A stretch of DNA of 32,858 bases from Candidatus Micrarchaeota archaeon (GCA_030040595.1 JASHTL010000064.1:1-32858); one strand, 5' to 3'. Counted from the first letter of the stretch, positions 15,567 through 20,622 are shown. Notes: generated from the letters alone by a model not told the origin. Made by a program: numbers and translations.

Positions 15567-15578
15567 TTGGACTCGGCG
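15567..15578 (-). repeat. Exact direct copy of the tRNA-Ala 3' end (att-like)
   Basis: TTGGACTCGGCG is identical to 19103-19114 and is intergenic. Confidence 0.85.
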
Positions 15579-16090: not shown

Positions 16091-16144
16091 ACAATCCCCG
16101 GGAATTTAATGATTATCCTGATATTTAAAGCAGCCGTTTCGGGC

Positions 16145-16154
16145 TTGCACTCGG
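16145..16154 (-). repeat. Degenerate tRNA-Ala 3'-end repeat
   Basis: TTGCACTCGG versus TTGGACTCGG (9/10), located between the TIGR00725 and fic units. Confidence 0.5.
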
Positions 16155-16163
16155 ATCACCACT

Positions 16164-16283
16164 TTACCCTTACATTTCATTATAAATTCAATATTTATAC
16201 AAATATGTGAGGGTAATAATGTTATTCGCTATTACCCTTACTTTAAATTAGAAAAGTAACTATTTATATATTTGTAAGGGTAA
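16164..16283 (+). promoter_or_regulatory. Tandem pair of inverted-repeat operators, each enclosing a TATA box, upstream of fic
   Basis: TTACCCTTACA-N31-TGTGAGGGTAA (16164-16216) and TTACCCTTACT-N30-TGTAAGGGTAA (16232-16283). Each spacer contains TATTTATA. Confidence 0.7.
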
Positions 16284-16292
16284 GTACCAGAT

Positions 16293-17189
16293 ATGGTTGT
16301 TATAAAGAAAAAGCAGATAGGCGACAAAACCTACTATTATCTTGGACATACGTATCGCCAACAAGGCAAAGTAAGGTACAAAGAGACATACCTAGGAAAT
16401 AAGGTACCTGCTGACATCGAAAATGTAAAGAAAGGATTCCTACAGCAACTATACAAGGAAAAATGGTTTGGCCTGTTTGAAAAGATAAAATTGGAATATG
16501 CTAAAGATCTCAAGAAAACACCGCCAGAAGTGTTAGAAAAGAATCTAGAAGCATTTATGATATCATTTACGTATAACACCAACAGAATAGAAGGCTCAAA
16601 ATTATCCCTCAAAGACACTGCATTGCTGTTGGAACATGGAATAACCCCTAAAGGCAGGCCCATTGGGGATGTAAAGGAAACTGAAGCACATAGAAAAGTA
16701 TTCTATGAGATGTTGGAATATGAAGGAGACTTATCCATAGGGATACTGCTCAAATGGCATAGAGAGTTATTTGGCGAGACAAAACCCGAAATAGCGGGTA
16801 AGATAAGAGATTACCAAGTCTATATTACTGGAACCAGATATAAACCCCCAAGCGCAATTGAGGTTCAGGCATACATCCTAGAGTTCTTCAGATGGTACAA
16901 CAGGGAAAAGAGTGCATTGAACCCTGTCGAACTTGCGGCTCTTATCCATGTAAAGTTTGAGGCAATTCACCCATTTGGTGATGGTAACGGCAGAATTGGA
17001 AGACTAATCATGAACTTCGTATTGCATAAGAACGATTACCCGATGTTAAACATACCATATACAAATAGGCTAGGTTATTATAACGCACTTGAAAAAGCGC
17101 AGATAAAAAAAACAGATTCAATCTTTGTCTTGTGGTTCTTCAGAAGGTACCTAAAAGAATGCGGCACGTATCTGCCAAGAAGTAAGTAA
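16293..17189 (+). CDS. Fic-family protein with N-terminal basic beta-rich putative DNA-binding domain
   Basis: Canonical HPFGDGNGRIGR; N-terminal autoinhibitory motif TNRIEG; KKKQIGDKTYYYLGHTYR...YLG N-terminus. Confidence 0.93.
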   Translation: MVVIKKKQIGDKTYYYLGHTYRQQGKVRYKETYLGNKVPADIENVKKGFLQQLYKEKWFGLFEKIKLEYAKDLKKTPPEVLEKNLEAFMISFTYNTNRIEGSKLSLKDTALLLEHGITPKGRPIGDVKETEAHRKVFYEMLEYEGDLSIGILLKWHRELFGETKPEIAGKIRDYQVYITGTRYKPPSAIEVQAYILEFFRWYNREKSALNPVELAALIHVKFEAIHPFGDGNGRIGRLIMNFVLHKNDYPMLNIPYTNRLGYYNALEKAQIKKTDSIFVLWFFRRYLKECGTYLPRSK

Positions 17190-17219
17190 ACTATTTCGCA
17201 CCAAGTTAAATGGACGTAG

Positions 17220-17230
17220 TGGACTCGGCG
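17220..17230 (-). repeat. Exact direct copy of the tRNA-Ala 3' end
   Basis: TGGACTCGGCG is identical to 19104-19114. It is preceded by ACGTA, as at the tRNA itself. Confidence 0.85.
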
Positions 17231-17300
17231 AAACCAGCAAATGAGTATGATGTAAGAACAACATTAGATAATGGTGTTTAATAGTACTTGATAGTATTCA

Positions 17301-17687
17301 CTAGCATTCTATTGTCTTGACTCCGGCTTTTCTAGCAAGGTTTGCCTGATTATTGTCGCAGGTCACTAATTCGTAAGCATTCTTTAGTGCTGCAGCTACA
17401 AACATAGCATCATATATCGACGAATTGTATTTCCTAGCAATTTCAAAGGCCTTACTCGTATGTTTTCTTTCCTCTATAAACCTAAAGGTATCAGGGTACC
17501 TCTCGAGAATCTCGACTGCCTTCTTATATTCAAGCTCATTCTTACGGACTTTTTTCAGAAGTGCGCTGCCTAGCTCTATCATGGAAAGTTCTATGCTTAT
17601 TGGTTCGTAGAGATACTTTTCAACCTCTTCCCATCCTGGCTCTTCTGAAAAGTACTTGACAATAACGGAGCTATCAATAAGCCTCAT
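17301..17687 (-). CDS. vapC: VapC/PIN-domain toxin
   Basis: LIDSSVIVK, E in SMIEL, IYDAMFVAAA, LVTCD; overlaps the upstream antitoxin. Confidence 0.9.
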   Translation of the reverse strand: MRLIDSSVIVKYFSEEPGWEEVEKYLYEPISIELSMIELGSALLKKVRKNELEYKKAVEILERYPDTFRFIEERKHTSKAFEIARKYNSSIYDAMFVAAALKNAYELVTCDNNQANLARKAGVKTIEC

Positions 17688-17892
17688 TTCTATCCTCCCT
17701 TATTGATTTCACCGCGAATCCGGCTTTAGATGGTTTTGAGGTTTTAATAATTTCTTTCAATTCGAGTAAGACTTTTTTGGCATTTGCCTTCCATGCAATA
17801 TCCTCTATGTATTCTTTTGGGTTTATGCCAGCCCTTTTGAGCTGTTCTGCAGTGCCACGCCTTACTCTAATACTGATTACTTCGGTGTCCAT
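17674..17892 (-). CDS. Antitoxin (VapB-like, RHH-type)
   Basis: 72 aa, N-terminal TEVISIRV strand, C-terminal SIREDR, 14-nt overlap with vapC, TTTATATA box upstream. Confidence 0.8.
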   Translation of the reverse strand: MDTEVISIRVRRGTAEQLKRAGINPKEYIEDIAWKANAKKVLLELKEIIKTSKPSKAGFAVKSIREDRNEAY

Positions 17893-17958
17893 GATTATAT
17901 GTCAGCATACAGATATATAAACATTTCTGTTTACTTAGTCGATTACACAAATACCAGA

Positions 17959-17967
17959 TGGGCTCGG
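17959..17967 (-). repeat. Degenerate tRNA-Ala 3'-end repeat
   Basis: TGGGCTCGG versus TGGACTCGG (8/9), located between the vapBC and ribokinase units. Confidence 0.4.
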
Positions 17968-18042
17968 TTATGGAAGATCTTCAAGTAATGGTTGTACTTT
18001 CACAATCGATAACTGGACATTCTATATATTTTTTGCAGGTGC

Positions 18043-18954
18043 TTACCTTTGCATATACGTGTCCACTTCAGAACGAACAGGTAAAGAAGAAGACGCTCCT
18101 AAACGCTGGACACTTAGTGCCGCAGCTTTATTGGCAAAGCTGAGTGCATCATTCAACGATTTTTGTTCTGACAATGCAACTGCAAAAGCCCCAGCAAAGC
18201 AATCACCTGCAGCAGTAGTATCAATTGCATTTACTTTAATCCCTTCCACTCTGACTTCTCCATGCTGATTAATACAGAGCGCACCTTTTGCACCCAAAGT
18301 AACAATTATTGTCTGGTCTTTCCTAGCTTTTACTTTATTTGCATAGTTTTTAATGGTCTCTATGTCCTCAGTAACTGTTTTGTTTGCAAAGAAGGCAACC
18401 TCATGCTCATTTACTATTAAATAATCTGCAAGGATAAGGAGCTCTTTAGAGCATTTCGCAGCTGGTGCTGGGTTAAGTATCGTCTTAGCGCCTGCGATCT
18501 TGGCTCTTTTGAAGAGTGATAGTATTGTTTCTTGTGGTATCTCGAATTGTGATAAGAGAATGTCAGAGCTGCCCAGCTTTATTGAAGATACATCATCAGC
18601 AGATACTTTGGCATTGCTTCCAAGGACTACCACTATTGAGTTTTGCGAATCTTTATCAACACATATAATAGCCGTGCCAGTTGGTGTGCCCTTTGTAAAT
18701 CTTATCCCATCGACCTTCATCTTTTCCTTTTTCAAGACTTCATATATTGACCTTCCAAAATCATCTTCTCCCACCCTGCCTATGAATTCTACGTTACCAT
18801 TAAGTCTGCTTGCCGCAATTGCCTGGTTAGAACCCTTACCACCAAGTATAAAATGAAGACTATCCCCCAGTACTGTTTCACCCGGTTTTGGCATTTTATC
18901 TGTTCTAGTGACAACATCCATGTTAATGCTGCCAACAACGACTATCTTCCCCAT
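18043..18954 (-). CDS. rbsK: Ribokinase
   Basis: VVGSINMD, GGKGSNQA, GRVGEDDFG, ILNPAPA, NEHE, DTTAAGDCF. Confidence 0.92.
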   Translation of the reverse strand: MGKIVVVGSINMDVVTRTDKMPKPGETVLGDSLHFILGGKGSNQAIAASRLNGNVEFIGRVGEDDFGRSIYEVLKKEKMKVDGIRFTKGTPTGTAIICVDKDSQNSIVVVLGSNAKVSADDVSSIKLGSSDILLSQFEIPQETILSLFKRAKIAGAKTILNPAPAAKCSKELLILADYLIVNEHEVAFFANKTVTEDIETIKNYANKVKARKDQTIIVTLGAKGALCINQHGEVRVEGIKVNAIDTTAAGDCFAGAFAVALSEQKSLNDALSFANKAAALSVQRLGASSSLPVRSEVDTYMQR

Positions 18955-19103
18955 TTATTTGCCTCGATACCTTACTTATGATTGTTAATAATTAAGATAC
19001 TATCTTACTCTGGACAGATCGACGCAGGATTCCCATACCATGTATCATAAGCTTTATATCATTTTCAGGGGTCCACTGCGCCAGTCCACAAAGGAAACGT
19101 AAT

Positions 19104-19177
19104 TGGACTCGGCGGGATTCGAACCCGCGACCTCGCCGTTGCGAACGGCGCGCAAACTACCGCTGTGCTACGAGCCC
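19104..19177 (-). tRNA. tRNA-Ala (anticodon CGC), intronless, CCA not encoded
   Basis: GGGCTCG/CGAGTCC acceptor with G3.U70 and A73; CGCCG-TTCGCAA-CGGCG anticodon arm; GCGGG-TTCGAAT-CCCGC T arm. Confidence 0.95.
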
Positions 19178-20178
19178 TTTGGTAATAGTCTACCTGTCTT
19201 TATCCATTGGCCATACCTTTCTTTTATCAAAGGATGCGATGTACCTATATTGTACATCCATCTTCTTATATTCCTATTACCACGCAAAACTACGTCTCCC
19301 GAGTCTCGTTTATTTTGCCAATGAACATATGCTGGGAAATCTAAATTGTTTAGTAATTCTCCCATATCATAAAGGAACGACTTACTCCCACTAGATATTT
19401 TAAGTTCTAGATATTTGTAATCCTCGTCTTTTCTCGCGTATAGACAACCATCTGTATCAAGCAAACCACGCAACACTGACGCTTTAACATCTATTGGACT
19501 ATTGAATATCTGCTCTGTTATTCTCAATTTATTCTTCTTTTCACCTATGGGCATACCTAATGAATTAAAATAATCGAATATTAGTCTACTTTTTATCGGA
19601 ATGCCTATTACGTGTTCACTTGATCGTTTATAATAGTAACCCGATAAATTAAACCTCCTCTGTAAAATTGGTATTACATAATCTAGATAATAATGTAAAT
19701 CGTCGGTCATATTCCCAGTAAATAAGGTCTGATAGCACCAACGGTTTTCGTATGTAGAGAAAAATTTTGACAAGCATCCATCTCCCATGCAAATGCCTAC
19801 CAACTCCCATATTTGCGGATCCACCTGCGGTAAGTCCACTGTATGTCTAAAACTTCTAACGAATGCCATTCTTGAGTTTATCTGATTTTTATATTTCCTA
19901 TAAGATTCTAGACCTCCGAGGCGGTTTCCCCAATTGGAAGGATAGGTTTCTATGCCCTTTGAAACTTTTCTTTTAATATCTGGCGAAGATATGTCCAGAA
20001 GTTCATTAAAAACCTCTTCAGGTATAAGTCTAGTACCAGAACACCAATTCTTAACTGCAGAATAACCGTACCCTAATTTTTTACTTAGGTCTATTATAGA
20101 AATTTGATTATCTTGCAGAATATTGTCAAATAAGAGTGCTCGTGATTCATCATTAAGTCTTATTCTATCCCCACCCAT
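19168..20178 (-). CDS. Free-standing HTH + double-LAGLIDADG endonuclease-like protein overlapping the tRNA 5' end
   Basis: N-terminal HTH (ISIIDLSKKLGYGYSAVKNW); motifs ELVGICMGDGCL and VLRGLLDTDGCL; AT-rich; TATAAATA about 30 nt upstream; stop TAG is tRNA positions 8-10. Confidence 0.85.
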   Translation of the reverse strand: MGGDRIRLNDESRALLFDNILQDNQISIIDLSKKLGYGYSAVKNWCSGTRLIPEEVFNELLDISSPDIKRKVSKGIETYPSNWGNRLGGLESYRKYKNQINSRMAFVRSFRHTVDLPQVDPQIWELVGICMGDGCLSKFFSTYENRWCYQTLFTGNMTDDLHYYLDYVIPILQRRFNLSGYYYKRSSEHVIGIPIKSRLIFDYFNSLGMPIGEKKNKLRITEQIFNSPIDVKASVLRGLLDTDGCLYARKDEDYKYLELKISSGSKSFLYDMGELLNNLDFPAYVHWQNKRDSGDVVLRGNRNIRRWMYNIGTSHPLIKERYGQWIKTGRLLPKGS

Positions 20179-20289
20179 TCAGATCCGATTATAATAAAAA
20201 CCTCAGATTATTTATACCATTGGACAGCGTGGCTGACAAAGATATCAAGCGTTATAAGCTTTACATTGGGAAGTAATATCGGTGCGCCA

Positions 20290-20622
20290 ATGGCAGTGCA
20301 ATATCTGGGGTACATACTGATCGGGCTGGGCATAGCGATAATACTGCTTGCCCTGGTCCTCGGATACGGGGTCTACATAAGCGCGAGCGGAAACATCAAC
20401 AGCGCTGCGCTTGCCAGTCCAAGCAGAAACAGCACGATCAACGGCTCAGTGAGCACGCTCGCCAGCAACCTTCAGAATACCGCTACCGTAGGAACGTACA
20501 CTGCAATAGAGATAGCAGTGCTCTTCCTGATAGCATCGATAGGGTACAAGCTTTCGTACCTCGGGCTGCAGATGAACGGCAGGCAGAGCACGCCGGGCAA
20601 GCAGGCCAAAATGAACGATTGA
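20290..20622 (+). CDS. Small two-TM membrane protein
   Basis: Two hydrophobic helices; GGTG RBS at 20281; first gene of the cca cluster. Confidence 0.7.
   Translation: MAVQYLGYILIGLGIAIILLALVLGYGVYISASGNINSAALASPSRNSTINGSVSTLASNLQNTATVGTYTAIEIAVLFLIASIGYKLSYLGLQMNGRQSTPGKQAKMND

Follow-up and report, generated by a model that had tools for sequence, protein, structure and literature searches.

A Free-Standing LAGLIDADG Gene in the 5' Leader of an Archaeal tRNA-Ala(CGC) Gene: A Probable Homing Element That Takes Its Stop Codon from the tRNA

Introduction

In the genome of a Candidatus Micrarchaeota archaeon, a gene for a LAGLIDADG protein runs into the tRNA-Ala(CGC) gene that follows it, and its stop codon is furnished by the tRNA sequence. 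The gene lies in a stretch of 32,858 nucleotides (GCA_030040595.1 JASHTL010000064.1:1-32858; the whole of this stretch is called the window below), which belongs to an assembly of 949 kb that is 82.6% complete. We hold with considerable confidence that it is a free-standing homing endonuclease gene (HEG) seated in the leader of the tRNA-Ala(CGC), probably still active, whose product would be an I-DmoI-like single-chain enzyme with an extra N-terminal DNA-binding domain. The usual view is that HEGs survive by hiding within self-splicing introns and inteins, and that those of phages do so between genes. By sequence comparison, the window nuclease belongs to a clade that is specialised on the tRNA-Ala(CGC) gene. 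A preliminary description of the window had proposed a homing element that hitchhikes on a tRNA, and this proposal now has comparative support from conserved docking on tRNA-Ala(CGC), empty alleles within the same genus, patchy distribution, relics and an incongruent gene tree.

The Gene Ends Inside the tRNA

The HEG occupies 19168..20178 on the minus strand and encodes a protein of 336 amino acids (P0001), with an ATG start at 20178, a TAG stop at 19168-19170 and another stop codon just 5' of the ATG that bounds the open reading frame (ORF). A complete tRNA-Ala(CGC) with the G3:U70 pair was placed at 19104..19177 (minus strand) by both ARAGORN and Rfam (RF00005, 58 bits; gathering score 29). 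Read on the minus strand, the last codons of the ORF are cca aag ggc tcg tag, and the tRNA begins with GGGCTCGTAG; the two genes therefore overlap by 10 nt (19168..19177, minus strand), with GGC TCG TAG corresponding to tRNA nt 2-10 and the stop codon to nt 8-10. An ORF of 336 codons ending within this tRNA, as initially described, was thus confirmed, and so was its richness in AT: the GC content of the nuclease gene is 0.35, against 0.53-0.54 in the flanking genes. The CGC anticodon is found in one of the 34 tRNAs of the assembly, making this tRNA the sole CGC isoacceptor found in an assembly of the completeness given above.

The overlap is not peculiar to this assembly, nor does it look like a frameshift error. 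The junctions of the window were reproduced with 0 differences in contigs of other runs from the same study (19124-19242, 20167-20483 and 19947-20411); one further contig, which extends 26 letters past the junction, was left out of the count of junction-bridging contigs. In addition, the ORF stops inside the tRNA in all 11 close loci examined, the window included. The stop lies at tRNA position 8 in six of these loci, at position 13 in two, at position 19 in one and at position 21 in two. This variation indicates that the stop codon is the first in-frame stop that the tRNA offers, and not specifically U8-A9-G10; the earlier statement that these invariant nucleotides supply the stop is correct for the window and for the loci with the stop at position 8, and does not hold for the other five. 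The conserved C-terminus of the proteins, W-x-x-T-G-x-L-L-P-K, ends exactly at tRNA +1. At another locus (L014) the ORF likewise ends inside an intron-bearing tRNA-Ala, which ARAGORN missed.

An Intact Nuclease with an Additional N-Terminal Domain

The protein matches the Pfam family LAGLIDADG_3 (E 6.3e-08), and both of its LAGLIDADG motifs keep the acidic residue, in agreement with the preliminary description. Motif 1 (E125...G132-D133-G134-C-L; 19771..19806, minus strand) contains MGDG, with G132-D133-G134, and motif 2 (V235...R237-G238..D241-T242-D243-G244; 19441..19476, minus strand) contains DTDG. Residues E125, G128, G132, D133 and G134 of the former and R237, G238, D241, T242, D243 and G244 of the latter are the same in all 23 aligned relatives, as is K214, so that both catalytic Asp residues (D133 and D243) are kept throughout the alignment. 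The AlphaFold2 model of the nuclease has a mean predicted local distance difference test score (pLDDT) of 93, and a Foldseek comparison matched it to I-DmoI (E 2.9e-10; template modelling score, by target, 0.79) as well as to I-Tsp061I, PI-PfuI and a V-ATPase intein nuclease. Inteins, I-Tsp061I, PI-PfuI and I-DmoI were also returned, at E 1e-12 to 1e-5, by a profile search of solved structures. As modelled, the nuclease is an intact single-chain LAGLIDADG enzyme with the I-DmoI-like pseudo-dimeric alpha-beta-beta-alpha-beta-beta-alpha fold. NCBIfam and PHROGs hold no dedicated family for it and gave intein and endonuclease cross-matches only; the Pfam scan found only LAGLIDADG_3 and weak helix-turn-helix (HTH) matches, and no GIY-YIG domain.

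The N-terminal HTH of the preliminary description corresponds to a helical domain at residues 10-75 (19954..20151, minus strand), which is probably of the Cro/C1 type. Its Pfam matches, HTH_26 (E 0.026) and HTH_3 (E 0.15), both fall under the curated cut-offs. When the N-terminal 112 residues were modelled separately (pLDDT 89), the best Foldseek matches were all Cro/C1-type (XRE-type) HTH proteins; these had E values of at least 0.05, and none reached E <=0.001. With structural matches at this level only, the model makes a Cro/C1-type HTH likely, if weakly supported: the type of fold named earlier recurs in every best match, and a match at E <0.05 was not among them. The W-G-x-x-L-G-G linker motif noted at the outset (W83-G89; 19912..19932, minus strand) is present and conserved in an alignment of 14 N-terminal domains, with G88 and G89 invariant and W83 and G84 conserved in at least 90%. 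A subclade of short forms of ~242-257 amino acids, without the N-terminal HTH, was also observed (L008/L156 in G058, L009 in G329, and L046/L157 in G432), and these genes are still docked on tRNA-Ala(CGC).

Docking on tRNA Genes in Close and Distant Relatives

Whether homologues adjoin or overlap tRNA genes could be examined at two scales. Among 401 sampled genomes of the phylum, strong relatives of the nuclease (E <1e-40) were found in 12 genomes other than that of the window, and 10 of the 12 abut tRNA-Ala(CGC). As for the remaining two, the tRNA-Ala start lies 34 nt downstream of the nuclease ORF in L009, where it is cut by the contig end, and in L011 a distance of 47 nt separates the nuclease from the intron-bearing tRNA-Val(GAC) that follows it. 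The tallies over phylum and family genomes in this report include one unpublished genome (G198), on which no specific claim rests.

A scan of species-representative genomes returned at least 543 relatives; the hosts, among the matches listed, are Micrarchaeota, Aenigmatarchaeota, Woese-, Pace-, Nano- and Iainarchaeota, Hadarchaeota and bacteria of the candidate phyla radiation (CPR). At 56 of the 80 best loci of this larger set, taken from named genomes, ARAGORN places the start of a same-strand tRNA within 60 nt of the ORF stop. ARAGORN labels are unreliable for intron-bearing tRNAs, with several 'Leu', 'Ile' and 'Phe' calls having Ala- or Val-like stems, and Rfam missed most of the multi-intron tRNAs that adjoin distant relatives; a purpose-built detector of the acceptor stem plus T-arm was used. 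With this detector, the nuclease gene was found to abut a tRNA 5' end at 66 of 93 unique loci, compared with 1 of 93 at a control anchor placed 700 nt upstream. At 53 of the 66 docked loci the ORF ends inside the tRNA; the other 13 ORFs have a stop codon of their own, placed just short of the tRNA. Clades of the nuclease follow the identity of the tRNA (Ala-CGC, Ala-GGC, Thr-GGT, Thr-TGT, Ser-CGA, Arg-CCT and Val-GAC): tRNA labels change 35 times on the nuclease tree, as against 63.9 times in shuffles, and none of 200 shuffles was as low. Docking on tRNAs is a trait of the family.

Some arrangements depart from this pattern. In one clade (L073, L074, L076, L078, L085, L093 and L103), the ORF end overlaps a tRNA-Thr on the opposite strand, an arrangement that is convergent and not a docking on the 5' end. 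In L028 and L029 (G336 and G365), two copies of a tRNA 5' part flank the nuclease ORF; one stands at or just before the ORF start, and the other at the ORF end, where nt 8-10 of a multi-intron tRNA form the stop codon TAA. A distant relative, L019 (G221:C21), looks intron-borne, its ORF starting in a tRNA 5' exon and ending just before the tRNA 3' part, and in another, L054, the entire nuclease gene falls within a 1.17-kb 'intron' of a tRNA-Ala(CGC) predicted by ARAGORN.

Full-text literature searches, whose coverage does not extend to subscription journals, yielded no account of DPANN archaea or CPR bacteria with LAGLIDADG genes docked at the 5' ends of tRNAs, and such genes seem to be undescribed in print.

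Empty Alleles, Patchiness, Relics and the Gene Tree

LAGLIDADG-free alleles of the locus were found with synteny preserved. Alleles of the same genus without the HEG lack the segment 19178..20245 (minus strand; 1,068 bp); two of them (L037 and L039) have a leader of 21 nt instead. Homology to G402, by blastn, resumes at 20246. The nuclease gene was found in none of the 11 genus-mates, and it is present in 5 of 118 genomes of the family, which represent five different genera. These genomes are 50-97% complete, many of the genomes compared being at 56-94%, so that absences are to be read as 'not found'. The tRNA is matched in all 11 genus-mates and confirmed as tRNA-Ala(CGC) by ARAGORN in nine; the nuclease gene is absent from these nine loci, the gene for the CCA-adding enzyme adjoins the tRNA in 9/9, and the gene for a 118-aa membrane protein is present in 6/9. 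The same presence and absence is seen elsewhere. The HEG-bearing G058 has an insertion of 757 bp between leader position -6 and tRNA +1 relative to its genus-mate G075, and when G360 is compared with G359, it carries 1,578 bp more.

Relics of the nuclease were found as well. In G321 (L129, G321:C16), a genome scored as nuclease-free by the protein search, the last ~40 nuclease codons persist, frameshifted, directly upstream of tRNA-Ala(CGC), and this tRNA differs by 1 nt from that of the HEG-bearing G135, which belongs to another genus. A 52-aa piece of the nuclease is left in G265. In the careful tree, the window gene falls in a clade of 10 sequences (support 100/99), with sequences of host families f1 and f2 interspersed, and an approximately unbiased (AU) test rejects monophyly of host family f1 (p 0.017; the groups were fixed by taxonomy, and the test was run after the first tree had been viewed). 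Presence and absence at the same site among relatives, sporadic distribution and a phylogeny incongruent with that of the host are the marks by which homing elements are recognised, and all of them are found here.

Linked tRNA Alleles and Upstream Stumps

The tRNAs themselves were compared by tabulated pairwise identities. The window tRNA is 96% identical to that of the HEG-bearing G058, from another genus, at most 89% identical to those of the other 116 family genomes and 78-86% identical to those of its genus-mates. In four genera (g1, g11, g33 and g34), HEG-free genus-mates have the canonical D-arm, from which that of the HEG-linked tRNA departs; G135 and G432 are exceptions to this pattern. 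Moreover, seven of the 12 clade loci have, upstream of the nuclease gene, a significant stump corresponding to tRNA nt 1-20, with a score that 0-7 of 500 shuffles attain. The stumps end in the D-loop, keep the canonical D-loop and are directly followed by a TATA-like box. Stumps together with altered linked tRNAs fit an element that inserts into the tRNA gene and supplies a new 5' part in place of the original, which it pushes aside. The tRNA 5' part would then travel with the nuclease gene, and may have done so in the window. A hand-aligned stump of the window, with 12/20 matches, was considered and dropped as unconvincing.

Promoters and a Possible Mode of Expression

A TATA-like box, GGTATAAAT, lies at 20210..20218 (minus strand), 40 nt upstream of the ATG, and scores 8.3 with a position weight matrix (PWM) built from the upstream regions of 32 other tRNAs of the genome. 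Analogous (G)AAATAAATA boxes stand upstream of the nuclease genes of relatives, and the GGTATAAAT box is probably the element's own promoter. Just outside the inserted segment, at 20246..20262 (minus strand), lies a conserved host element, AAAGCTTATAAcgcttg (caatg[c/t]AAAGCTTATAAcgcttg in the junction alignment), which is palindromic and TATA-like (TTATAAGCTTT / AAAGCTTATAA), is kept in genus-mates and is located ~27 nt upstream of tRNA +1 in the empty alleles. From this position we infer that it is the tRNA promoter. It lies between a divergent 118-aa gene (20266-20622), which it may also serve, and the tRNA/nuclease unit, and in the window it has been left upstream of the nuclease gene. The inserted segment separates this promoter-like element from tRNA +1, which places the nuclease ORF in the 5' leader of the tRNA. 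A similar AAAGCTTAT was noticed downstream of the tRNA, at ~19044-19052, before a PfkB gene.

The PWM scan found no strong TATA box before the tRNA at the usual -41 to -31, the best scores being 4.8 at -27 and 6.7 at -55, and the genome contains RNase P RNA (112.5 bits). Together, these two findings make a co-transcript of nuclease and tRNA, trimmed by RNase P, plausible. Since the ORF has no stop of its own, cleavage of such a co-transcript by RNase P would yield a non-stop mRNA; it is accordingly plausible, as was proposed early on, that tRNA 5' processing of the predicted co-transcript strips the nuclease message of its stop codon. As a designed feature this is weakened by the tRNA-docked relatives (13/66) that have their own stop before the tRNA.

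These observations can be assembled into a homing cycle. The element would bring its own TATA-like box and no stop, and reading would run into the tRNA to the first in-frame stop. The predicted target of the enzyme is the 5' part of the tRNA, or the DNA beside it, in tRNA-Ala(CGC) alleles that lack the HEG; after such a cut, repair from a HEG-bearing allele would copy in the element along with at least the 5' part of the donor tRNA. Insertion would be harmless because RNase P trims any leader from a tRNA, so that leader processing would stand in for the splicing on which intron- and intein-borne HEGs rely.

Comparison with Known Systems

I-DmoI, I-Tsp061I and PI-PfuI are archaeal single-chain LAGLIDADG enzymes that are encoded in rRNA introns or inteins. 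The window nuclease is like them in having two LAGLIDADG motifs per chain, a catalytic Asp in each, and the same predicted fold, but differs in being free-standing in a tRNA leader, in taking its stop codon from the tRNA, and in carrying ~110 extra N-terminal residues with an HTH-like domain. WhiA is a bacterial regulator that combines LAGLIDADG and HTH domains; its catalytic residues are lost or degenerate, its HTH is C-terminal, and its distribution in Gram-positive bacteria is near-universal and vertical. The combination of the LAGLIDADG fold with an HTH domain is shared with the window nuclease, whereas the latter has invariant catalytic residues, an N-terminal HTH-like domain and a patchy distribution.

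The nearest functional analogue is SegB of phage T4, a free-standing GIY-YIG HEG in the T4 tRNA gene cluster, whose recognition site includes a conserved tRNA motif and which promotes the inheritance of itself and of the surrounding tRNA genes (PMC2330249). Both are free-standing HEGs beside tRNA genes. SegB is a phage GIY-YIG enzyme with no tRNA overlap, in contrast to the LAGLIDADG genes of cellular DPANN and CPR genomes, which are docked precisely at tRNA +1. A second parallel is provided by the mORFs of fungal mitochondria (Allomyces and Glomus atp6), in which a LAGLIDADG ORF goes into a gene, carries with it a foreign version of the gene end that it displaces, and leaves the native end as a stump (PMC3630166). 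The clade studied here resembles them in its upstream tRNA 5' stumps and in linked tRNAs that differ from those of genus-mates. Differences are that the geometry is mirrored (5' rather than 3' end), that the target is a tRNA and not a protein gene, and that flanking duplicates, found in the seven related loci, are not recognisable in the window, where 233 of 500 shuffles equal the score; the window is likened to mORFs by inference only. Among other reports, that of Nawrocki et al. (PMC6125680) concerns group I introns of rRNA genes, and that of Lui et al. (PMC8172020) mentions homing endonuclease genes in CPR rRNA spacers in a remark only.

Alternative Explanations

Several points weigh against a homing element that is still active in the window. 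The window has no recognisable tRNA stump upstream of the gene, as the shuffles just cited indicate, so that the model of a replacement tRNA rests on relatives. The nuclease proteins of the window genome (G000) and G058 are only 53% identical, and any transfer shared between them must be old in spite of the 96% identity of their tRNAs. The nearest relative of the window gene is unsupported in the careful tree, the AU test followed a look at the first tree, and incomplete genomes mean that absences of the nuclease may be failures to find it. Contigs of four DNA runs from one study, one of them the probable source of the window, contained no HEG-less joint, a result that is uninformative on polymorphism. 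As regards expression, the moderate TATA-like site scoring 6.7 lies inside the ORF, 55 nt upstream of the tRNA, and may provide the tRNA with an independent promoter. Some of these points would also suit an element that was mobile in the past and has become an inert passenger, keeping an intact ORF without homing and descending vertically with frequent loss: close relatives are only 42-54% identical, so that no recent transfer is visible, a stump in the window could have decayed beyond recognition, and truncated forms and relics exist. We regard this as improbable, though worth keeping in mind, because the ORF is uninterrupted with all catalytic and structural invariants kept, its GC content is still 0.35 in a genome of 0.53, and monophyly by host family is rejected; with no nuclease gene found among 11 genus-mates, pure descent would need many precise losses, each restoring a short leader. 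A domesticated, WhiA-like DNA binder that regulates the tRNA or its neighbours without nuclease action would explain the extra HTH-like domain and the fixed position at a promoter-proximal site. It would not be expected to keep the catalytic Asp invariant in 23/23 sequences, to carry the HTH-like domain at its N-terminus or to occur in only 5 of 118 family genomes, and the relics, incongruent tree and clade-specific tRNA docking are hallmarks of a selfish element rather than of a housekeeping regulator; this explanation therefore seems to us rather remote.

The preliminary description had also offered the nuclease as the engine or specificity factor of a cassette array downstream of the tRNA. 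Direct copies of the 11-nt tRNA 3' end, TGGACTCGGCG, at 15568-15578, 17220-17230 and 19104-19114 bracket two cassettes there, one with a SLOG gene and a Fic gene and the other with a PIN gene, a 72-aa ORF and a PfkB kinase gene. No integrase is present in the cassette block, whose GC content is mostly 0.39-0.41, the SLOG gene being host-like at 0.54. The nuclease gene adjoins this array, and the block 16091-20245 is low in GC as a whole. However, similar 11-13-nt repeats downstream of tRNA-Ala occur in the HEG-free G303 (+1952) and G318 (+4537) as well as in the HEG-bearing G058, and they are missing in six of the eight HEG-bearing loci examined; the HEG-free G071 has partial 3' tRNA copies; and neither a co-occurrence of arrays with the nuclease gene nor cleavage at the 11-nt repeat was seen. 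Also, LAGLIDADG enzymes are not known to be recombinases. The role in the array was thus not borne out and has very little to recommend it, and judging from these comparisons the cassette array is a phenomenon separate from the nuclease. The G071 locus (L150, G071:C21, ~115.8-122.5 kb) is of interest in its own right: in this nuclease-free genus-mate the tRNA-Ala match is split into 1-39 and 44-74, which may reflect an intron, and further partial 3' tRNA copies of 29-50 nt lie ~5 and 6.6 kb downstream, suggesting tandem integrated elements at tRNA-Ala. Least probable of all, to the point that we scarcely entertain it, is an ORF carried in an archaeal tRNA intron or produced by an assembly or frameshift artefact. 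The intron-borne appearance of the distant relatives L019 and L054 speaks for the former, but the downstream tRNA of the window is complete, no 5' exon is recognisable upstream, the window offers no intein host, and an Rfam scan of the window found no group I intron, which upholds the original remark that the gene is in neither an intein nor an intron. An artefact is contradicted by a junction that is kept in 11/11 close loci and reproduced in contigs of other runs.

Implications

A homing element in the tRNA leader, as favoured here for the window, may be one instance of something wider, namely a distinct class of homing elements for which the tRNA 5' leader is a neutral niche and RNase P replaces splicing. 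Such elements would bring a cleavage-resistant tRNA 5' part with an altered D-arm and leave the old part as a stump, the non-stop mRNA would tie nuclease dose to tRNA transcription and processing, and the class would be a major overlooked force on tRNA sequences across DPANN archaea and CPR bacteria. We put this forward tentatively, as a possibility that we do not at present favour in its entirety. A large family docks exactly at the tRNA processing site in cellular genomes, where removal of the leader by RNase P would make insertion harmless. For annotation, ORFs that run into tRNAs in DPANN and CPR genomes should be taken as real and not as errors. If homing elements of this kind are confirmed, the family would represent a natural panel of long-target nucleases, each directed against a different tRNA gene, and a third 'safe harbour' strategy for HEGs, and it would account for the odd, lineage-incongruent tRNA alleles and the tRNA stumps in DPANN and CPR genomes.

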